Shown here: one piece after another, positions 2,769 to 64,000 of the stretch
Layout of the letters: every line of letters starts with the position of its first letter
Numbering within the stretch: the first letter of the stretch is position 1
Virus record (IMG/VR): IMGVR_UViG_3300006204_000001
Reading direction: 5' to 3' (one strand)
Source: a virus
Taxonomy: Duplodnaviria; Heunggongvirae; Uroviricota; Caudoviricetes
DNA length: 64,000 nt
Made by a program: the position numbers and the translations under genes
Notes under the pieces: generated by a model
What the model was told of the DNA's origin: nothing
Database searches by the model: none
Seen by the model: the letters and a program-made list of their open reading frames with translations, nothing else

Positions 2769-3566
2769 TTATCTTGGTATATCACAGTTAGTTTGTTTAA
2801 CTAATTCTGTCTCTATATCTTTCCATCCAATTTTACCACCAAAGTATTCATATATGTCATATGTCAATATGGCAATTGCATCCGAATAAATCCTTATTAA
2901 TTTATCTGCTTTTTCATCATCGTGAATTTTAGATGGATCTATTATTTCATAATTAAAGAAATCATAATTTTGGAATTTCTTGTTGACATTAGTGCATATA
3001 GCTAATGATAATCCACATCTTTTATCAATTAAACTAGTCACATTAATTCTTTTATGATTATTGATTATAAATGGATTTTCTTTTCTAGATGGTAGAGAAA
3101 TAGTATAAATTGGTGGTGGAGTACTCATGTCTTTAAAACCAATCATTTGCATGAATAACTTATTTTTAGTAATAAATTCATGATCTGCATAAATGGTTGA
3201 ATTATTGTTATTTATCATTTTTACCAATTTAATTATATCATCATATAATTCATTAGTTATTATCCATCGCGCATCAATAATAGTATAATCTATTTCTTCT
3301 TGTTTATTGTTAAGCAATTCAAGAAATGAATTCTGTTTACCATCCTCAAAAATCATTTTATTTAATTCATTACATACAATAGCTATTGTATATAATCTAT
3401 GAGGTATATTCCAATATGGTTCAATATAATCATCAACTGATGGATCATGAATATATTCTTTCTTTTGTAACCAATTATACATTTCTTGCCATGTTGGCAA
3501 TTCTTCTTTTGCATATGTTGATACAATATATTTATCGTTTCCATTACAATCTTTAATCCACGGCAT
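2769..3566 (-). CDS. Hypothetical protein
   Basis: 265-aa ORF overlapping the upstream gene by 14 nt. Confidence 0.75.
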   Translation of the reverse strand: MPWIKDCNGNDKYIVSTYAKEELPTWQEMYNWLQKKEYIHDPSVDDYIEPYWNIPHRLYTIAIVCNELNKMIFEDGKQNSFLELLNNKQEEIDYTIIDARWIITNELYDDIIKLVKMINNNNSTIYADHEFITKNKLFMQMIGFKDMSTPPPIYTISLPSRKENPFIINNHKRINVTSLIDKRCGLSLAICTNVNKKFQNYDFFNYEIIDPSKIHDDEKADKLIRIYSDAIAILTYDIYEYFGGKIGWKDIETELVKQTNCDIPR

Positions 3567-4173
3567 TATTTTCTTCCTCCTCTTTTGTATTTTCTAATCC
3601 ATTTTTATGTTTTATTTTACCATTTTCAAAATATACATTACAATCAAACAATGCTTGTATATCTGATAATATTGTATACATAATTCTTTCAGGTGAATTA
3701 GGATCTTCCATTGCTTTACTATTTGCTCTAGCTAATGAAGCTGCACCATGCATAATAGCTTTATAAAACATAGGTTCTAATTCCTCATCTACATCTATAC
3801 GTAAATCCTTATATCTGAAAGTAGGTTCATATCTATGAGACCAATCTTCAACTTCTTGTTCTGTAGCTAATGACCAATGAGTTATAATTGTATTGTTGAT
3901 CAATTGATCTTGTTGACTTAAAGGGGATGCATCATATTTTGGAAATGGTCCCATAATAGCCCATTGTCCACCATCTGAATTATAATTTTTAATATATTTT
4001 GCCATTTTAATATCTTCAGCATAATAAATCTCATTTTCTGTTTCTACATAAATGTATGATTTATTATATAACCTGACCATTACAGGTGTATTTTCTGGTA
4101 CCTTTTCTTTATTGATATCATGCCAGTCTCTTTTATTCATTAATACATTTGAAACTTCTTTTTTCATTTTCAT
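3553..4173 (-). CDS. Hypothetical protein
   Basis: 206-aa ORF with RBS AAGGAG upstream. Confidence 0.75.
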   Translation of the reverse strand: MKMKKEVSNVLMNKRDWHDINKEKVPENTPVMVRLYNKSYIYVETENEIYYAEDIKMAKYIKNYNSDGGQWAIMGPFPKYDASPLSQQDQLINNTIITHWSLATEQEVEDWSHRYEPTFRYKDLRIDVDEELEPMFYKAIMHGAASLARANSKAMEDPNSPERIMYTILSDIQALFDCNVYFENGKIKHKNGLENTKEEEENNAVD

Positions 4174-5840: not shown

Positions 5841-6407
5841 TTATTTTAAACTATTTTTCCATTTTTCAATTTCATTAATTTCCACATAATCATATGCATA
5901 TAAATAAAATCCATTTATATTTATAAATTTAGATTTTGTACATATCTCATATAATGGTGCCTCTGATGTAGATGGAAATACATCTGGATGTTCAAAAAAT
6001 GTCTCTGTTCCTCTTATAATTTTAATCTTATCATTATCAGTAATCCTCTCTATATTTTTTAATACATAATTGTATTTTCTTTCTCCATGAAATCCGATTG
6101 TATAAGTTTCATCATATACAGGAATAAGAGCATATTTATCTACAGTAATATAGTTATCTCCTGCTTTTAATGTTATACGAATAGAATCATTATTCTCATA
6201 TTTTGTTATTTTAAGAATTTTAGTCCATCCATCTGAATCACGTGTAAGGATATTAATACCATTAGCTATCATCCTATACTCATTATTTACCCTTCGTTTA
6301 AAATATTCAGCATAACTTCTAATGAAATTACCAATGGTATCTTTTTTAGCTGTAGCTGTACTCTTATCAACATCCATCCATTCGATTATAGAACCTTCTA
6401 ATATCAT
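5841..6407 (-). CDS. Free-standing Hint (intein)-fold protein lacking splicing residues
   Basis: By eye it follows mini-intein blocks: ILEGSIIEWMD (A), NILTRDSDGWTKILKITKY...RITLKAGDNYITVDKYA (B), LYEICTKSKFININGFYLYAY (F/G). No N-terminal Cys/Ser, TxxH or His-Asn. Confidence 0.6.
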   Translation of the reverse strand: MILEGSIIEWMDVDKSTATAKKDTIGNFIRSYAEYFKRRVNNEYRMIANGINILTRDSDGWTKILKITKYENNDSIRITLKAGDNYITVDKYALIPVYDETYTIGFHGERKYNYVLKNIERITDNDKIKIIRGTETFFEHPDVFPSTSEAPLYEICTKSKFININGFYLYAYDYVEINEIEKWKNSLK

Positions 6408-6409
6408 AA

Positions 6410-8521
6410 TTACCCTCCTAAATTTAATAATTTATTTGTTAATTCATCTATAGTAATTATTGGAATATTATGATTGATAGCATTTGATACTGTAGATGAT
6501 TCATAACCTTCTCTGGGTATAACAATACATTTTGCATTATTAGACCATCCTCCTGTTTCATAAGAATAATTCTTTAATAAATCTTTCATTTCTTGAGATG
6601 GTCTACATCCAGTAAATACAATTCTTCCTTTAAAAACAATATTTGAATATGATTGTTTTAAATTAACTTCTTTCATTAGTTTCTTTAAGAAAGAATAATT
6701 TTTAGGATCTTTAAAATGATTAATTAATTTATCTGCTTTTTCAGGTCCTATCTTGTCAACCATAATCAAATTTGCTTTTAATAAATCCCAATTTTTTAAT
6801 TTAAACAAATTCAAGAAATCATTCAATGGTATTTTTTTAAATATACCTTCAAATGTTTTAATGTGTAAACCTTCTATGCCTAAAGATCCAAAAAACTCAG
6901 CATCTGTTAATTTACGCTTTGATTCAATTTCTCTTATAATTTTTCTTGTCTTTATTTCACCAAAACCATCAAGATTTTTTATTTGATATGATTTCTTTTT
7001 CAACTTATATAAACTTATTAATCCATCATCTAAAAATCCAGCTGAATATAATAAGTCTATAGTAGAATATCCTATATATTGCATTCTTAATGATTGACAA
7101 TAATTAAGAATTCTACCTATAATTCTTGATGGACAATTAGAATTCTTACATTGTACTGCTGTTACATTGAGATTTAGTTTCTCATGACACATCGGACATC
7201 GATCAATAAATTCAATTTTTCTACCATTAGGTATTCTTTTACATTTTTCATCAAGAGTAACATATGGTATGATATCATATAGCACTTTCACTTCATCTCC
7301 ATATGATAAATTTAATTCATCAAATCTTTCTTTATTTGATAAAGAAATATGATTAACATTATTACCTTTCATCGTTAAATCATTAATAACAACTACTGGA
7401 CATATATAACCAAAGTCTGATGTATTAAATTCACAACCTTTTACTTTTGAATATGCATATTCTTCAGTAAATTTATATGCTACTTCAAAATTATTAATAT
7501 TATTCTCTCTTCCTAATACTTCTTTAATGTGTTCGTCTAGTATAGTCATTACTACACCATCTGTACGTAAACGTTTACCATTATAATTTACATATCTATT
7601 ATGATTTGCAAATTCTTTAATTTCATCGCGATCTCCAAATGTACATATTTTTGTAGGAAACTTTTTTATTAAATCAGGATTAACAACTTCTGATTTATCA
7701 CCCTTACGATAAATTCTTAAAGGTACTAATATCATATATTCAATTTTAAAATCGGCTTCATTTGAATTTACTACTGCCGATACAATTTGTCTTGAATTTC
7801 TATATGGATGATGTTGATAAAATTGATTTATTATATCTTTATCATCTTCAGAACACATACATTCAAATTTTATTCCTGTATGATAATAATTTTCATAATC
7901 ATCATTAAATACATTCATAATATGTGTTACATCAGATGCTAAATTATTACGAGTATCACCTCGAGTAATCCATCGCATCTTATCATCAATTTCTAATATA
8001 ACAGATACACCATCAAATTTGGGTTGTAACATTATTTTTACTTTATCCATATCAATACGTTTTCCAGTCTTATTATAATATAATAATGATATAGAGGCTA
8101 ACCATTCATCCAAATATTTCCTACTCTTATTAACCCTTTTTTCATCAGTAGTGAGATAATAAACCTTATCTAAAGTACCACGTAATTTTGTAAATTTACC
8201 TGATACTTTATTATTATCATTAATTTCAATATTACCTGATAACCTTGGTATTCCATCTGATATTAATAATTCCTGCAATATATCATAAGTCAAATCATCT
8301 ATAGGAGAATCCACGGATGAATTATATAACGTTTGACATATATTTACTATCTGAATTAATTCTTGTAATTGAATTTCATTTAGTGGTTCAGATGAAATAT
8401 TTCCAATATTTTTATAATAATTAATCTTTTTTGTAATATCAGATTTTTTCATCATATTATAAGCATCTTCTGGTTTTATCTTTCCTGATGTTAATTGAGT
8501 ATTAAGTAATTCTAATGTCAA
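6410..8521 (-). CDS. ligA: NAD-dependent DNA ligase
   Basis: KFDGVS adenylation motif, ITRGD, DGVV, AYKF, OB region, Cys4 Zn finger (CPMC...CKNSNC), HhH repeats, BRCT-like C-terminus. TTG start. Confidence 0.95.
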   Translation of the reverse strand: MTLELLNTQLTSGKIKPEDAYNMMKKSDITKKINYYKNIGNISSEPLNEIQLQELIQIVNICQTLYNSSVDSPIDDLTYDILQELLISDGIPRLSGNIEINDNNKVSGKFTKLRGTLDKVYYLTTDEKRVNKSRKYLDEWLASISLLYYNKTGKRIDMDKVKIMLQPKFDGVSVILEIDDKMRWITRGDTRNNLASDVTHIMNVFNDDYENYYHTGIKFECMCSEDDKDIINQFYQHHPYRNSRQIVSAVVNSNEADFKIEYMILVPLRIYRKGDKSEVVNPDLIKKFPTKICTFGDRDEIKEFANHNRYVNYNGKRLRTDGVVMTILDEHIKEVLGRENNINNFEVAYKFTEEYAYSKVKGCEFNTSDFGYICPVVVINDLTMKGNNVNHISLSNKERFDELNLSYGDEVKVLYDIIPYVTLDEKCKRIPNGRKIEFIDRCPMCHEKLNLNVTAVQCKNSNCPSRIIGRILNYCQSLRMQYIGYSTIDLLYSAGFLDDGLISLYKLKKKSYQIKNLDGFGEIKTRKIIREIESKRKLTDAEFFGSLGIEGLHIKTFEGIFKKIPLNDFLNLFKLKNWDLLKANLIMVDKIGPEKADKLINHFKDPKNYSFLKKLMKEVNLKQSYSNIVFKGRIVFTGCRPSQEMKDLLKNYSYETGGWSNNAKCIVIPREGYESSTVSNAINHNIPIITIDELTNKLLNLGG

Positions 8522-19100: not shown

Positions 19101-21124
19101 AAATCAAAAATGTGTCATAAATAAATTAGTATCTGATATAAAAACTGTAGAACCGTATTCAACATTAAATCCAGTAGTAGAAATGTCTAAAACACATTCA
19201 ATATCTACTAAAGGTTTCAAAGGTTCTAATTCAGAGCATTCATATGATGAAGAAAAAAGATCATATGATCCATCGGCAGTAGGTAAAATAGCAATAACAA
19301 CATCGGCTAAAGTATTTGCATTGGCCGAATAAAACTTTTTGAATTGCGGGAAACTCCTTAGAGTCATTATTACTAAACTATTTATAGAAATATAGTAGTG
19401 GTCTAGAGTAATTAACTAGAGTATAGTAAAAAGATAATGAATTGGACAATCCGCATTTTTATTTTATAATAATAAAGAAACCAATTATTTGATATCTAAA
19501 GAAATATATAAAAGTATTAAACTCAAACGATCGAAAAAAATAGATTCAATGATATCGAATAATAGACATAAATATAGAAATATTATAAATGAAATTCAAC
19601 GACCATCGAAAGATAATAACTCAGAAGAAATAATAATAGAAGAAACAATTTTATTTGGATATGAGTTAGAATCGAATAGAGTAGATGTATTATTTAATCG
19701 AAGTGAAAAGGATAATAATTTATCATGATATGGTCTATATTTTATTGAATAAATAAAATTATTTAAAGGATGCAAATGTAGGTATTAATAAAAATTTAGT
19801 AGTAGAACCAACACTAGCTAATAGTAGAGGTTATAGAGAACAAGTAGATGATGTTGAAACATTAAAAGATGTAAATTTATTTTCTCCTGTAGAATTATTA
19901 ACTCCAGGAACTATATGTGTAGATGATCCAATTCGTTCTGCTATTGCTGCTAAACAATCAGCCCATGTTGTACCAGTGAACGATTCAATTCCATCATTAG
20001 TTTCAAATGGTTTCGACGAGGCAGTTCAGTTTTATTTATCATCTGATTTTGTTATTAATGCAGATGAGGATGGTAAAGTAATTGATGTAAATGATGAATT
20101 GGGATTTATTATGGTTGAATACAAATCTGGAAAGAAACGTGCTATAAATACAAATCCTGATATAGTACGTAATTTAGCAGGTGGATTTAATCTTGCTAAT
20201 AAATTAACTCCAGTGTATACTAAAGTAGGTCAAAAATTTAAAAAAGATGAACCATTAGCATACCATCCAAAATATTTCCAATATTCTCCTATTAATGGAT
20301 TACGATATTCATTTGGTCCATTAGCAAAAGTAGCTTTTATGTCTACATATAATACATATGAAGATGCAGGATTGACACATGAAAGTTTTTCTGATAGAAT
20401 GGCAACAGATATTGTTTATCAAGAAAAAGGTATGTTTAAACGTAATAACAATATTTTGAGTATGGTTAAAATAGGTGATCATGTTGCTATAGGAGATCCA
20501 TTAATAAAGTTTGATGTATCTGTAGAAGACGATATATTATCTTCATACTTAGTACATTTATCTGATGAAAATGCAGAATTATTAGCTAATGAGACTAAAT
20601 CAGAAATTAAATCATCACATGCAGGAAAAGTAATAGATATAAAAGTATATAGTATATTAGATCCATCTAACTTGTCTCCTTCTTTAGCTAATATAGTACA
20701 AGCATATTTTGATAAAGGAAATATGAAAAAAGAATATTTGGAACAATTTGATGGTACTCCAGGTATTATAAAAGCTGGCTATATGGTTACTGATACTACC
20801 GAGCCAATTAAGAATAGATATAATAGTATTAAAGGAAATAAGGGGGTAGATGTTTTAATAGAAATTTATATAGAACATAAAGATGTGATGGGTGTAGGTG
20901 ATAAGGTTGCATTATATGCAGCTAATAAACAAATTATTTCTGAAGTTATTCCTGAAGGATTTGAACCATATTCAGAAATAGAACCAGATGAGCCTATAGA
21001 TTTATTTACAAGCCCTGGAACAATTGCGAGGAGAATGACTCCAAGTGTAGAACCTATATCTGCCGCATGCAAAGTACTAGTATATCTAAAAAGAAAAATA
21101 AAAAAAGAAATCAAATATTCATAA
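16138..21124 (+). CDS. Multisubunit RNA polymerase beta-like subunit, join(16138..19308,19769..21124), about 1508 aa; probably virion RNAP (phiKZ gp178-like)
   Basis: Beta-type motifs in both exons (DIPKFQDNRFMLINGTRW; spliced ITTSA^DANVGI; YNTYEDAG; GDKVAL...NKQII; TIARRMTPS). Exon 2 is open from 19769, in frame with ORF 19976..21124. The virion assignment is inferred from the long N-terminal extension and from beta N and GDK regions being in one chain. Confidence 0.85.
19309..19768 (+). ncRNA. Group I intron (460 nt, no credible ORF) in RNAP beta
   Basis: P1 UCGGCU/GGCCGA with U.G at the splice site. P10 pairs loop AUUUGCAU with 3' exon AUGCAAAU. P AATTGCGGGAAACTCC, Q AATCCGCA, R TTCAACGACCAT, S GATATGGTC, terminal G at 19768. 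Splicing restores the frame. Confidence 0.9.
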
Positions 21125-21354: not shown

Positions 21355-24300
21355 TTAATTATCTGAAAGGATCGCTATAGAAATGTTTTCTAACGCGCTA
21401 AGATCTAATCGAATCGATTGATCCACCCTATTTATGAGCATATTAATAGGACTAAATCCTTCAAATAATTCCCAAAGCTCTTCGAGTGGTAATCCTAATT
21501 CATTCAAAACATCTCCGTCAATTTTTTATTAATTTCTCCACAATTAATTAGTTTTATTAAAAAGTTTTTTAGTATAAACAATGATGTAACAAAATAATAT
21601 TATAGGAGGAATAACTTATGTTAACTACTAATGAACTTTTAAACAATAAAAACACCATTTCTAATTTTTTAATTAATCGACCAATACCAGAAAAATATCG
21701 ATTGACAGTTGATAAGATTCCTTTTGGTTATATCTACTGCATTGAGAATAAATTAACAGGTATGAAATACATAGGTTCTACATACTCAGTATGGGCCGGT
21801 ATACAAAAGCCAAGACCTTATACTTCATTATCAAAACGAGCTTCACATTATTTATATGAATATAACAAAGCTATGAAATCTATTACAGCTGGTAACAAAG
21901 TTACATATAGACCTATTATACAAGCTATGATAGATAATGGTTTTGATAATTTTATTATGTATCCTATTTGTGAAACTACTCCTGCTAGTCATACTGGAAT
22001 GGAAAATTATTTCATAGATATTTATGATACTATTAAAAGTGGCTATAATGTTTCTAGAGCTGGTGTACCAACTGCAACTGGTCGAGTATTAACTGCTAGA
22101 GATAAGCAGATTAGATCAGAAGGTATTATAGCTGTTAATATGAATGATAAAAAACTTGTAGTATCTGAATCCATGAAATTATTAGGTGACTATATTGGTA
22201 CTACTAAAGATCAAATTAAAAATGGTAATCGTAATGGTAAACCAGTAAAAGGTTGGTTTATATTTTATTTAAATCCAGATAAACGACATGAAATATTATT
22301 TAAGAATGTAATCCATGATCAAAATAAGCGTAAACAAGAACGTCATTCTGATAAAGCAAAATCATTTTATATAGGACTATATAATGCAATAGAATTACAT
22401 CTAAATGAAACATATCATAGTGAATATTTTCCTGGTTTTGAAAGATTACCTAATCTGATATATACTGATTAATTATGGAATTATTAATAACATAGACCAT
22501 ATCTTTAGAGGAATATATATGCTACTATATATTCCTCTACTTCTGTTTAGATTTAAGGGGTGCCAATCCCACTTATTTTTCAATAAGCCCTACTCTACTA
22601 ACTATATACATCATATTCATTATAGTTATTTCGATGGTCGTTGAACTCATGTGCGTTTTAATGTGTCTGGAAAACATTTTGGACACAAAGATATTTTCAA
22701 TTCAAACTCTGCAGGTTTTGCCTGAAATTTAGTACCACATGGTTTATGTCTGTATTGTACTATACATTTAGGAGTATATAGTTTATAGTCTGATAATAAC
22801 TCATACTCTTCTGCATGTGGAATCTTTTTCAATTCTCTTAAATACATTTCCTTTGTGATACGTTGTTTTGGTTTGTTAGCTAATGTTGGTCTGTTTCCAG
22901 ATGCATCCAATTCTATGAATGCTTGTTGTTTCTCAGCTAATTTCTTTTTACGTGCAATCTTTTTTAATCCTCTTTCTGATGGGATTAAACTACGTGGTAT
23001 AGGCATATTATATTACCTCCTTTCTATACTATTATAGAATATATATTTAAATTGAAAATATTTTAAACGTACACTTTGCTGCGTCGATTGTATCTAATTA
23101 ATACCTTTTTACTATACCTTGAGATATTGCCTCTTGCCATTATTATATTACTATAATAATTTAGTAGTATTAATATTAACGATAGTTTCCCGCAATTAAA
23201 ATAATTTAAGCAGACCTCGACAGGCATGTTAAGTCTGCATTTAGCGTATTATTCATATACTATTATATTAGTATATCGAGCTTTTAACTCTGCCCTATAT
23301 CTCTATAGGATACTAGACTATATCTTCAATTAATATAATATTAATTGCCATTCATTTCCATAATTTATTTATGTACTCTACTAATTACATATTGTAACTT
23401 TGGATAGTCGTTGAAGCTAGTAATTTTATTTTTCTATCAATTCGTTTAACCATTTCAAAATTTTTATTATTTAAATCTAAATTAAGTATATCTAATATTT
23501 CAGCTTTATCATAACCTGCTAAAAGAAGTTCTTCAACATATAATTTCATATCTTTAGGATATTTTTCTTCTGGTATGTTATATAATTTTGATATATGTTT
23601 CCATCTTCTACCTTTCTTTATATCAGTTATATATTTTCTTTCAACACCAGTTAATTCTGAAATTATATTATTAGGAGTTCTTTGTTCTAGGAGTTTACAT
23701 ACTTCATGGATTTGTTTATCTGTATAATGACTTAAACTATTAGATGATCCAACTATAGCTGTTTTTAGTCCAGTCCTAAATGCATGCAATATATTTTCAG
23801 ATGTAGTAGACCATTCTAAGTTTAAATCTACATTAATATACTTTTTACCATTAATATGATTTACTTCTGGTTTATTATCAGGATTAGGAATAAAAGCTGT
23901 AGCAACAAACCTATGTATTCCTGGATGATATTGGCTACCATTAGGTCTAACTATAGTTGAATGTAAATATCCGTCTTTATCCATATATTTAGATAAAATC
24001 TTTTTAGTTATAGCATTTCTTACATCACCTATATTAGATACTTCATAATTAGTTTTCATACCATCAATTATGATTGGTTTCCATTCGAGATTAACTAAAT
24101 AGATATAATCTCCTATTTCAAAAATATTCATATAAATATCCTCCTGTATATCATATTTATATGAATAATATATAATTACTTTACCTGCGGATTGACTATA
24201 TATCTTTAACCTTTTTACTATACCTTCCACATTACTGGTTGCCACTACTATATCACTATAATAGTTTAGTAGTTAAAGCTCTTAAGCATCCATATATTAT

Positions 24301-25856
24301 ATAGATAGAATTTAGGCAATTCTCTTTCCCGCATAATTGAATGAATAGGCCGCCTTTTGACCTGGCAGGATTGCTGATGGTATTGCTAAACTATAATCAT
24401 CAGAATCTTTCTTTACCTTTCTAATTCGCATCAAAAGAATACTTCCAAATGTTATTGTAGGATTACGATTAATTATAATTTGCGGAGCATCTTCTTTTAT
24501 AACTCTACACATTATATCATATACATATGGATCGAAATTAAATTTTGATGCTAAAAAGTTTTGTGCTCTTGTTATTGTCCATCCTTTATCTTTTATAATT
24601 CTACGTAAAATGTTACCTTTATATATTTCAATAAATTGTTTATATGGTACATCTACTTCATCCATCTTTAAAGATGAATCTAATACAATTACGCTTCTTG
24701 ATGAGTAATTAAACTCGCCACCAAGAACATTTGCCCTAGTCCAACCATGCTTTCCATCAATTAATGAGAAATTTATCTGCCATAATTCATTTGCTCTCAT
24801 TTGAGCTTGATATAAATAAAGAGGTACTTCTATAGCAGTTGCTTTCTTCAAATTAATTGATATATGAGTTAAAGGATGAATATTTTTATCAAGTGGTGAG
24901 AAATAATACAATTATCTTATCTTTATATCTCTATAAACGTTGAGACTATATCTTTATAGAATCTATTATAGTAATCTATATCTTTCGTTTCCATTATATA
25001 TGTACTATACTCATATCATTATTGATATTTTCTATAGTCGTTGAACTATATTCACACAGCTACTGATTATCCCAAACTTATTTGATTTTACTATCCTATA
25101 TCCATTACGATATATGCTAACTTATATTATTACTAATATAATGCAGTTAAATAAGATAAAAGGAACTTCCAGTAATTATGAAAGAAAGAGCTATTATTTT
25201 CAACTCTCAGTTGTTATCCCCTGTGGTCTTAATACAGTAGAATATACAGGTAATTTAGAAGTCCATACTAAATCTTTATCCTGTATTAATGAATCTATTA
25301 ATTCTGCTTTCTGTTTTCTTTTACCTTTATAATAGGTCATAATCTCTTCATAATTTTCATAGAATTCTTGTAAACCTAAATTATGATATTTCAACATAGA
25401 TTTCTTAACTTCTATATCATCATTCTTATGTCTAATAATACCAGCGGATGTAATGATGTTTTCATTAGAGATTATATTCTCTAAAACTTTAGTAGATAAA
25501 GCAGACTTTAACCGGAAGAAAAAAAGCGGATTGATTATTTTAAACGGAGAAAAATTGAGCCACCCTGTATATAGAATATCTACATCACGATGTTCTACAG
25601 GCTCTCCACAAAATATACATTTTTCACCTTCAAACTCAGCTCCTATAGTTCTTCCGCATTTACAACGATATCTATCCATGAATTCATTAGCATCACCATA
25701 TGTAGTTCCATATCTAGGTGATCTAGGTCCATTCATATTTCGAATAGTTTTATCAACATCAGAGAATGGTATATCTGAAATTAAAAATCCTCTGTTATTA
25801 ATAATATCATTATAACATTCTGCCTCTAGATTCATCTTTTTAAATGAAATTCTCAT
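21355..25856 (-). CDS. RNA polymerase beta'-like N-terminal catalytic subunit, join(25856..25203,24908..24360,23244..23232,21521..21355), 460 aa; probably non-virion RNAP (phiKZ gp55-like)
   Basis: Zn finger RCKCG...CIFC, LPVYSTVLRP, GGEFNYSSRSVI, IINRNPT. Splicing yields IPSAILPG^LNADF^DGDVLN, the NADFDGD metal-binding motif. Exon lengths 654+549+13+167=1383 nt keep the frame. Confidence 0.88.
21618..22472 (+). CDS. GIY-YIG homing endonuclease, antisense inside intron P9
   Basis: GYIYCIENKLTGMKYIGST, conserved R (KRASHY), E (MENYFI), N (GYNVS), NUMOD1-like C-terminal segment. Own RBS AGGAGGA. Confidence 0.9.
   Translation: MLTTNELLNNKNTISNFLINRPIPEKYRLTVDKIPFGYIYCIENKLTGMKYIGSTYSVWAGIQKPRPYTSLSKRASHYLYEYNKAMKSITAGNKVTYRPIIQAMIDNGFDNFIMYPICETTPASHTGMENYFIDIYDTIKSGYNVSRAGVPTATGRVLTARDKQIRSEGIIAVNMNDKKLVVSESMKLLGDYIGTTKDQIKNGNRNGKPVKGWFIFYLNPDKRHEILFKNVIHDQNKRKQERHSDKAKSFYIGLYNAIELHLNETYHSEYFPGFERLPNLIYTD
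22647..23006 (-). CDS. Intron-encoded basic Zn-ribbon protein, no nuclease domain seen
   Basis: RBS GAAAGGAGG. YELLSDY...RHKPCGTKF...CPKC resembles Zn-ribbon repeats found in phage homing endonucleases. The stop codon abuts the R element. Confidence 0.7.
   Translation of the reverse strand: MPIPRSLIPSERGLKKIARKKKLAEKQQAFIELDASGNRPTLANKPKQRITKEMYLRELKKIPHAEEYELLSDYKLYTPKCIVQYRHKPCGTKFQAKPAEFELKISLCPKCFPDTLKRT
23245..24359 (-). ncRNA. Group I intron (1115 nt) carrying an HNH endonuclease
   Basis: Exon ends CCAGGU (short P1 AGGU/GCCU). Q AATCCGCAGG, R CTTCAACGACTAT, S GAAGATATAGTC, P9.0 GUAU/AUAC just before terminal G 23245. Confidence 0.88.
23385..24131 (-). CDS. NUMOD4-HNH homing endonuclease (I-HmuI-like)
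   Basis: YEVSNIGDVRN (NUMOD4), HRFVATAFIPNPDNKPEVNHING...NLEWSTTSENILHA. Start moved to ATG 24131 behind AGGAGGA. The 3' end overlaps the intron R element. Confidence 0.9.
   Translation of the reverse strand: MNIFEIGDYIYLVNLEWKPIIIDGMKTNYEVSNIGDVRNAITKKILSKYMDKDGYLHSTIVRPNGSQYHPGIHRFVATAFIPNPDNKPEVNHINGKKYINVDLNLEWSTTSENILHAFRTGLKTAIVGSSNSLSHYTDKQIHEVCKLLEQRTPNNIISELTGVERKYITDIKKGRRWKHISKLYNIPEEKYPKDMKLYVEELLLAGYDKAEILDILNLDLNNKNFEMVKRIDRKIKLLASTTIQSYNM
24909..25202 (-). ncRNA. Group I intron (294 nt, ORF-less)
   Basis: P1 GAGAGU/GCUCUU. P10 UAUUAUUU/AAAUAAUA. P ATTACTGGAAGTTCC, Q ATAATCAGTAGC, R GTTCAACGACTAT, S AAGATATAGTC, terminal G 24909. Splice gives TTES^YYFSP. Confidence 0.9.
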
Positions 25857-63919: not shown

Positions 63920-64000
63920 CATATACAAGAAACTTTTTTATTTATATATTATATTTATCGAGCATATACAGTATAATAAGTGAAGAGATAGTCTACCAGT
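63920..64000 (-). ncRNA. Probable 3' end of a group I intron at the DF^DGD site (truncated by the window)
   Basis: G at 63920 precedes TTGATGG, the same phase-1 junction as the 21522..23231 intron. The core is not visible in the window. Confidence 0.55.

Follow-up and report, generated by a model that had tools for sequence, protein, structure and literature searches.

A group I intron ending in A at the catalytic motif of a jumbo phage RNA polymerase beta-prime gene

The beta-prime gene and the 3' splice site of intron C

The DNA analysed here (the window, 64,000 nucleotides (nt) of the Caudoviricetes record IMGVR_UViG_3300006204_000001) is part of a 289-kb metagenomic contig of 26.9% G+C (JGI 3300006201). 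Positions 25856..21355, on the minus strand, carry the gene for the N-terminal half of the beta-prime subunit of an AR9-like jumbo phage RNA polymerase (RNAP), the non-virion RNAP, and this gene is composed of four exons with three group I introns between them, which we call A, B and C. Intron C is inserted in the codons of the catalytic motif DFDGD and its last base, at 21522, is A, while a terminal G (omega G) is treated as defining and near-universal for group I introns and by the software that annotates them. Judging from the sequence and its relatives, we consider it likely that intron C is a working omega-A intron, which is still removed from the essential beta-prime pre-mRNA at GACU|UUGACGG and acquired its A through a G-to-A transition. 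The gene is laid out as follows.

25203..25856, minus strand: exon 1, amino acids (aa) 1-218, with a Zn finger within; an open reading frame (ORF) whose junction ...ITTES|YYFSP... agrees with intronless homologues
24909..25202, minus strand: intron A, group I, without an ORF, terminal G at 24909 in the sequence; the automated junction finder gives U/G
24360..24908, minus strand: exon 2, aa 219-401, with the C-terminal ...AILPG (CCA GGT); its homologues carry Pfam PF00623
23245..24359, minus strand: intron B, with an HNH/NUMOD4 homing-endonuclease ORF at 23385..24245 (Pfam NUMOD4, E 2.7e-6) and terminal G at 23245
23232..23244, minus strand: micro-exon CTAAATGCAGACT, 13 nt, encoding LNAD and the first base of the Phe codon, placed by alignment; the same arrangement is seen at the related locus L061
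21522..23231, minus strand: intron C, group I, 1710 nt, last base 21522 = A, from the junction, the pairings and the assemblies
21355..21521, minus strand: exon 4, TT GAC GGA GAT ... = (F)DGDVLN...ILSDN, stop included; its C-terminus matches phiR1-37 g274, LPJP1 rpoC_2 and AR9 gp270

Together the exons amount to 1383 nt and encode a 460-aa protein, which aligned without gaps to many 460-aa intronless homologues from metagenomes at 72-77% identity (...AILPGLNADFDGDVLN... in the junction region). Across the intron C junction these homologues read ...PSAILPGLNADFDGDVLN..., within the conserved stretch LNADFDGDVLN. The nearest named relatives of the protein are phiR1-37 g274, Listeria phage LPJP1 rpoC_2 and AR9 gp270, that is, the N-terminus of non-virion RNAP beta-prime. 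Searches with megablast and tblastn in 50,697 phage records gave no close relatives of the region or of exon 4, only these distant AR9, phiR1-37 and LPJP1 homologues; a scan of IMG/VR with the exon-2 protein alone and an exact exon-4 DNA pattern gave no match, and no protein record of the 50-aa exon-4 ORF was found. The 3' end of intron B, read from the sequence and compared with the junctions of relatives, is ...aataatacG|CTAAATGC. The micro-exon, lying between two group I introns, supplies the LNAD of the catalytic NADFDGD, and the same layout is present in a related 289-kb phage, IMGVR_UViG_3300035498_000877 (L061, around 6625).

On the minus strand the 3' junction of intron C reads ...gtggagaaattaataaaaaa|TTGACGGAGATGTT..., the last intron a being 21522 and the first exon T being 21521; A21522 is preceded by AAUAAAAA, and under the proposed splicing the ligated exons read AATGCAGACT|TTGACGGAGATG. 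The first-pass annotation of this DNA had placed the 3' splice site after 21522 on the basis of the reading frame and of the P10 register, and both grounds were borne out, the former by the gap-free 460-aa alignment and the latter by the guide sequence of the intron, in which the P10 and P1 segments are contiguous (CUGUCGA|GGUCUGC).

23210..23223, minus strand: internal guide sequence, CUGUCGA (23223..23217, P10) followed by GGUCUGC (23216..23210, P1), from the pairing table

In P1 the exon GCAGACU pairs with the guide GGUCUGC over 7 base pairs (bp), with a U.G at the 5' splice site, and in P10 the exon UUGACGG pairs with CUGUCGA over 7 bp, including two G.U pairs, directly beside P1. Both helices covary with the exon codons in 11 related introns, where synonymous exon changes, in P1 at the third positions of the Ala and Asp codons, are matched by changes in the guide; compensatory changes in P10 were noticed in L017, L036 and L013. 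Since the P1 and P10 guide segments are contiguous, the ligation junction is fixed at U|U, and since the junction set by the guide and that set by the protein agree, the last intron base is 21522, an A. Every junction that would end the intron in G loses either the frame or DFDGD. Thus the nearest upstream G, 15 nt inside the intron (GUGGAG), brings in an in-frame TAA and was rejected, and G 21519 gives D-Y-G-D with loss of a catalytic Asp, as first proposed. The automated junction finder was unreliable at micro-exons and double introns, and some of those rows were checked by hand.

The A had also been suspected of being a base-call error, and this suspicion is refuted by other assemblies. The protein of the antisense endonuclease of intron C was found on ten contigs, and four further independent assemblies (JGI 3300006149, JGI 3300006203, Logan ERR2497922 and Logan SRR27143748; L077, L078, L079 and L080) all keep the terminal A, reading ...attaataaaaaa|TTGACGGAGATG with TTGACGG at the start of the 3' exon (in RNA form, the junction common to the assemblies is ...AAUAAAAAA|UUGACGG). 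Counting the window, the A is therefore found in five assemblies, each from a different sample, with three data sources represented. One of these assemblies, L080 (SRR27143748), is a variant strain of 99.2% identity, with 11 mismatches over ~1.8 kb, in which the A and all core helices are kept. A mixture of reads with and without the intron was ruled out as the source of an assembly artefact, because it would yield T or G and not A.

Some further differences among these assemblies were noticed. All six bases of the P8 hairpin loop (22520-22525, 6 nt) differ in L080, apparently flipped, while the stem is unchanged, and nine of the substitutions between the window and L080 fall in a 119-aa ORF of the intron as against only one in the 855-nt endonuclease gene. 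The L078 contig (JGI 3300006203, Ga0081181_1001748; region of note 3533-4075) is identical to the window from exon 4 into the HNH ORF of intron B, after which a GyrB/Toprim gene takes the place of exon 2; either the assembly is chimeric, joined through repeated intron sequence, or the gyrase gene holds a related HNH intron.

Terminal A and terminal G in related introns

Protein and DNA searches yielded a comparison set of ~60 related loci from uncultured jumbo phages. The insertion site of intron C, GAY U|UY GAY GG, is occupied by eight intron lineages in this set. Five of them end in G, namely L006/L022, L013/L014, L036, L061 and the paralogue at 63920 in this genome's second beta-prime gene, which reads ...GUAUAUG|UUGAUGG and so confirms the G that had been noted at that homologous junction. 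The other three, intron C, L017 and L019, end in A, and a terminal C or U was never seen in the eight lineages at this site. The L017 intron is 280 nt long, has no ORF and ends ...CAUCCAUA|UUGAUGG, while that of L019 carries an antisense GIY-YIG gene and ends ...CUAAUAUA|UUGAUGG. A comparison of the same intron in related phages had been proposed as a check on the terminal base, and it thus brought to light two more introns that end in A. Exact-pattern scans of IMG/VR for the L019 and L017 junctions gave no match.

In L017 and L019 the terminal A stands opposite the C with which a terminal G would pair, and in the G-ending L013 and L036 the terminal G stands opposite the equivalent C. The A therefore looks derived, and this arrangement points to a G-to-A transition in the family. 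At other insertion sites every resolved junction was compatible with U/G, so that A-ending lineages number 3 of 8 at this site and 0 of ~20 elsewhere (Fisher p ~0.02, to be taken with caution, being a rough count made with an imperfect junction finder). The genes that bear the A-ending introns, in the window, L017 and L019, are all intact, without stops or frameshifts. We could not link the terminal A to other features of the locus: an association with the antisense endonuclease was ruled out by L017, which ends in A and has no endonuclease, and an association with the micro-exon by L017 and L019, which lack one, and by L061, which has one and ends in G.

The beta-prime N genes of the relatives hold group I introns at about a dozen sites. 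In the 460-aa gene these lie at residues ~111, 161, 219, 225, 289, 369, 401, 403/404, 406 and 407 and within the third Asp codon (AR9, L050), and most of them coincide with conserved motifs (NYSG|R, NRNP|T, ILPG|L). Over the ribozyme core and the part of the antisense gene that encodes the C-terminal half of the endonuclease, L013 and L019 are near-identical, and they differ sharply from there on, in the N-terminal half of the endonuclease, in the 3' tail and in the first bases of the exon; they form a recombination mosaic with the breakpoint inside the endonuclease gene, which is split into two ORFs in L013 and intact in L014. In L042 (~542-950) the LNAD region reads AACGCT-ATTG-GACTTT, an apparent insertion of 4 nt that puts the reading frame out immediately ahead of an intron at the +2 site and could be an error, a pseudogene or something else. 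Outside the window, the genome holds many further copies of the intron family at ~6400-8200, 232100-232700, 273930-274060 and 275380-275455, which match either intron B or the 5' core of intron C at 74-82% identity and make for a large intron load.

Ribozyme core, peripheral loops and the proposed splicing

We take intron C to be a genuine group I intron of phage IA-like type, with P1, P3-P8, P7.1/7.2 and P9 in its core. Its 5' half, P4/P6 and the P, Q, R and S elements can be aligned to the same-site relatives without an ORF and, most closely of all, to the L053 intron. The elements of the core and of the P6 and P9 loops are as follows.

22631..22646, minus strand: R element GUUCAACGACCAUCGA, with the P7 5' strand GACCA at 22639..22635 and the guanosine-binding G at 22639 (sequence, alignment)
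22491..22506, minus strand: S element AAAGAUAUGGUCUAUG, with the P7 3' strand UGGUC at 22499..22495 and the guanosine-binding C at 22495 (sequence, alignment)
22468..22490, minus strand: P9 5' strand UUAUUAAUAAUUCCAUAAUUAAU, 4 nt after P7 (fold)
21526..21548, minus strand: P9 3' strand AUUAAUUGUGGAGAAAUUAAUAA, followed by AAAA (21525..21522), the last A being the omega base (fold, sequence)
22647..23006, minus strand: sense ORF in the P6 loop, 119 aa, basic, with a Cys-rich C-terminus and no Pfam match
21618..22472, plus strand: GIY-YIG (SegE-like) homing-endonuclease gene in the P9 loop, 855 nt, antisense to the intron (ORF; weak match to Pfam PF19835)

The P7 pair that binds guanosine had been described as canonical, and it is so: GACCA/UGGUC gives G 22639-C 22495, and P7 was also recovered by RNAalifold. 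All three introns with a terminal A have G-C as this pair, and between L019 (A) and L013 (G), whose cores are near-identical, the R and S elements and the P7 strands do not differ at all. The same GACCA/UGGUC P7 is present in the G-ending beta-subunit intron of the window (19309..19768, plus strand), whose reported ...AAAG end the sequence corroborates. Since the G-C pair is unchanged, the pocket has not been retargeted to adenosine, and a retargeted A-U pocket was therefore rejected. A terminal A, an unaltered G-C pocket and an intact flanking gene are all present in intron C, as in natural omega-A introns.

In the folds, the sense ORF is enclosed by a P6 stem, GUGUACGUUUAA/UUAAAACGCACA, and a homologue of the ORF is present in the G-ending intron of L053. 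The P9 stem is 23 bp long, starting 4 nt after P7 and ending 4 nt before the 3' splice site. The antisense ORF that it loops out scored 15.4 bits (E 0.023) with Pfam PF19835, below the cut-off of 25, and its homologue in the L008 intron, with which it shares 49% identity, scored 18 bits; the GIY-YIG motif FGYIYCIENKLTGMKYIGST is visible in its translation. The same P9 bracket with a homologous antisense gene was observed in L008, L013/14, L019, L061 and the paralogous intron. A SegE-like antisense GIY-YIG gene in the P9 loop is hence found at the DFDGD site in at least five lineages, each with a long P9 stem, and in each lineage the start codon of the gene lies ~100-145 nt from the 3' splice site. 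The occurrence in the paralogous intron, at 183749-184345 of the genome (~64134-64730 in window numbering, outside the window), shows 68% nt identity. With this P9 and the 7-bp P10, the 3' splice site, almost 1 kb away in the sequence, would be held beside the core.

We propose that splicing of intron C would start in the ordinary manner, with exogenous guanosine binding to the unchanged G-C pair of P7 and attacking after the U.G of P1. For the second step, the 3' splice site would be placed mainly by geometry, through P9 and P10, and probably not by recognition of the terminal base: the P9 stem, looping out the antisense GIY-YIG gene, would return the distant 3' end to the catalytic core, where the adenosine may enter the guanosine pocket without base-specific hydrogen bonds. 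Exon ligation after A would probably be slower, yet sufficient. We favour a working intron because the A persists across samples and strains and recurs in relatives in which C and U are absent, because the gene is intact and has no second copy in the genome detectable by tblastn (E 1e-3), and because there is precedent for such introns.

Some observations weigh against a working omega-A intron. Intron C itself scored only 15.6 bits (E 0.27) with Rfam RF00028 (Intron_gpI) in a focused scan, and scans of the whole window at the gathering threshold and of 19-30 kb at E up to 1 gave no group I match, while among the same-site relatives without an ORF L036 scored 61.2 bits and L017 46.3 bits (E 1e-9). 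The low score is due to the ORF inserts that interrupt P6 and P9, and owing to it the group I membership of intron C rests on the alignment to relatives. No convincing P9.0 pairing was found for the four unpaired bases AAAA before the splice site. A spliced or complementary DNA (cDNA)-like copy of this strain's gene was absent among 5.8 billion proteins, the best full-length match being 79% identical. In the Tetrahymena ribozyme, moreover, changing the terminal G to A reportedly blocks exon ligation unless the pocket is made A-U, and here the pocket is G-C.

Other explanations were weighed. That the true base is G, misread or misassembled, has a negligible probability: the base does come after a run of A and the contig is metagenomic, but the five assemblies, the diverged strain among them, agree on it, and the homologous base is A in two further phage lineages. 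A shift of the register by one base, with the 5' site either after GACUU and an exon UGACGG, so that the intron ends in U, or after GAC and an exon AUUGACGG, giving D-I-D-G-D, is very improbable. The T runs on both sides do permit the first shift with an unchanged protein (a U/U tie for L019, L013 and L036), and the Rfam alignment of L017 puts the terminal G of the model on the U before the A. However, the intron would lack a terminal G either way, the conserved U.G wobble at the 5' splice site would become U-A, the contiguity of P10 and P1 would be broken, and Ile occurs at that position in no homologue. Somewhat less improbable, though still poorly favoured, is a defective or poorly spliced allele, in which the G-to-A change cripples the second step and the phage lives on trace amounts of beta-prime or on co-infecting relatives with intron-less or G-ending alleles, or is dying out. 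Laboratory ribozymes are said to lose exon ligation when their terminal G is changed, and near relatives whose alleles lack the intron circulate in samples of this kind. Against this, the allele recurs in five samples and has been kept by two strains while they diverged by ~0.8%, the gene shows no decay and has no second copy to replace it, and the finding of A in three of the eight lineages and of C or U in none is that of a tolerated purine and not of random damage.

A protein cofactor could also be needed for exon ligation, be it the basic, Cys-rich 119-aa protein of the intron, another phage protein or an RNA chaperone or helicase of the host, and we regard this as unlikely, although less so than a defective allele. 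In its favour, the guanosine pocket is not adapted to A, and splicing of the hexacoral omega-A intron is believed to take place only in vivo (PMC8146996, where in vitro assays are asked for). The ORF in P6 of intron C, which encodes no nuclease, is a further point for it. On the other hand, a homologous small ORF occurs in the G-ending intron of L053, the A-ending intron of L017 has no ORF at all, and the Coxiella intron Cbu.L1917 is said to self-splice in vitro though it ends in A. A related reading, doubtful to our minds but with more to be said for it than for a cofactor, is that the whole intron family has a relaxed requirement for the terminal base, with the P10/P9 clamp, rather than recognition of the base in the pocket, as the driving force of ligation. 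If this were the case, omega A would be neutral or even favoured, for example through less 3' splice-site hydrolysis, circularisation or reverse splicing in an intron-crowded gene, and the natural A/G pairs (L019 and L013; intron C and L061 or L053) would offer a ready system in which to ask what the terminal G does.

Returning to intron C as a probable working omega-A intron, the observations bear on how such genes are read. An annotation pipeline for which a terminal G is compulsory would wrongly report this gene as broken. Even the catalytic motif of an essential viral RNA polymerase gene can retain an intron with a terminal A, and at this one site A has arisen repeatedly, whereas the sister introns have kept their G. 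Alleles matched in this way, A and G with unchanged guanosine pockets, constitute a clean natural experiment on the selection of the 3' splice site in the second step.

Comparison with known systems

The sister introns L013/L014, L061, L036 and L006/L022 are the nearest counterparts of intron C, with the same site and homologous 5' halves and guide sequences, and they differ from it by their terminal G; L013/14 and L061 also have the same P9-bracketed antisense GIY-YIG gene, and L061 the 13-nt micro-exon as well. The intron of AR9 gp270 (KU878088.1; HNH endonuclease g271) resembles intron C in being a group I intron with a homing endonuclease in the same gene and at the same catalytic motif. 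Its insertion point, however, comes after DYDG, 5 nt downstream of that of intron C, its terminal base is G (...ctaaatG|GACGTA) and its HNH ORF is on the sense strand, and the AR9 protein is only ~36% identical to that of the window. No published account of a phage group I intron with a terminal A came up in the literature search.

Outside the phages, terminal A is known from an engineered ribozyme and from natural introns. The Tetrahymena G264A:C311U ribozyme with a G414A 3' splice site reportedly ligates exons after a terminal A. This variant is said to need its A-U pocket and to use adenosine in the first step as well, whereas the pocket of intron C is G-C; intron C is therefore not a natural counterpart of the adenosine-specific ribozyme. 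Among natural introns, Cbu.L1917 in the 23S rRNA of Coxiella burnetii reportedly has a terminal A and self-splices in vitro. For intron C alone, and not for Cbu.L1917, closely related G-ending sister introns are available for comparison. The title of the paper on Cbu.L1917 (Raghavan, Miller, Hicks and Minnick 2007, J Bacteriol 189:6572), as cited in PMC3428280, calls it a self-splicing intron that 'lacks the canonical Omega G' and mentions a 34-bp exon. As far as that title goes, it is like intron C a group I intron of the bacterial world and adjoins a very short exon shared with a second intron (34 bp as against the 13-nt micro-exon), and it is unlike intron C in residing in an rRNA, not in a protein gene, and in being without endonuclease genes.

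The likeness to coral mitochondrial introns that had been drawn at first is apt (PMC8146996), with Cbu.L1917 being a closer precedent. The ND5-717 intron of hexacoral (sea-anemone and coral) mitochondria ends in A and its splicing is documented, and its authors propose that the terminal A avoids 3' splice-site hydrolysis and circularisation (PMC8146996). Like intron C, it has a terminal A with an otherwise conventional core, resides in an essential protein gene and holds a large cargo in a peripheral loop (PMC8146996; PMC6545197). Unlike intron C, it belongs to a eukaryotic organelle, is vertically inherited and fixed, and its cargo, in P8, consists of host genes, while intron C is mobile and polymorphic, with A, G and intron-less alleles, and carries homing-endonuclease genes. 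The omega A of intron C is thus a rare, already known kind of exception, of the sort seen in Coxiella and the hexacorals, and not a new principle; the value of the case lies in its essential target, in the recurrence of A at one site and in the matched A- and G-ending sister introns.

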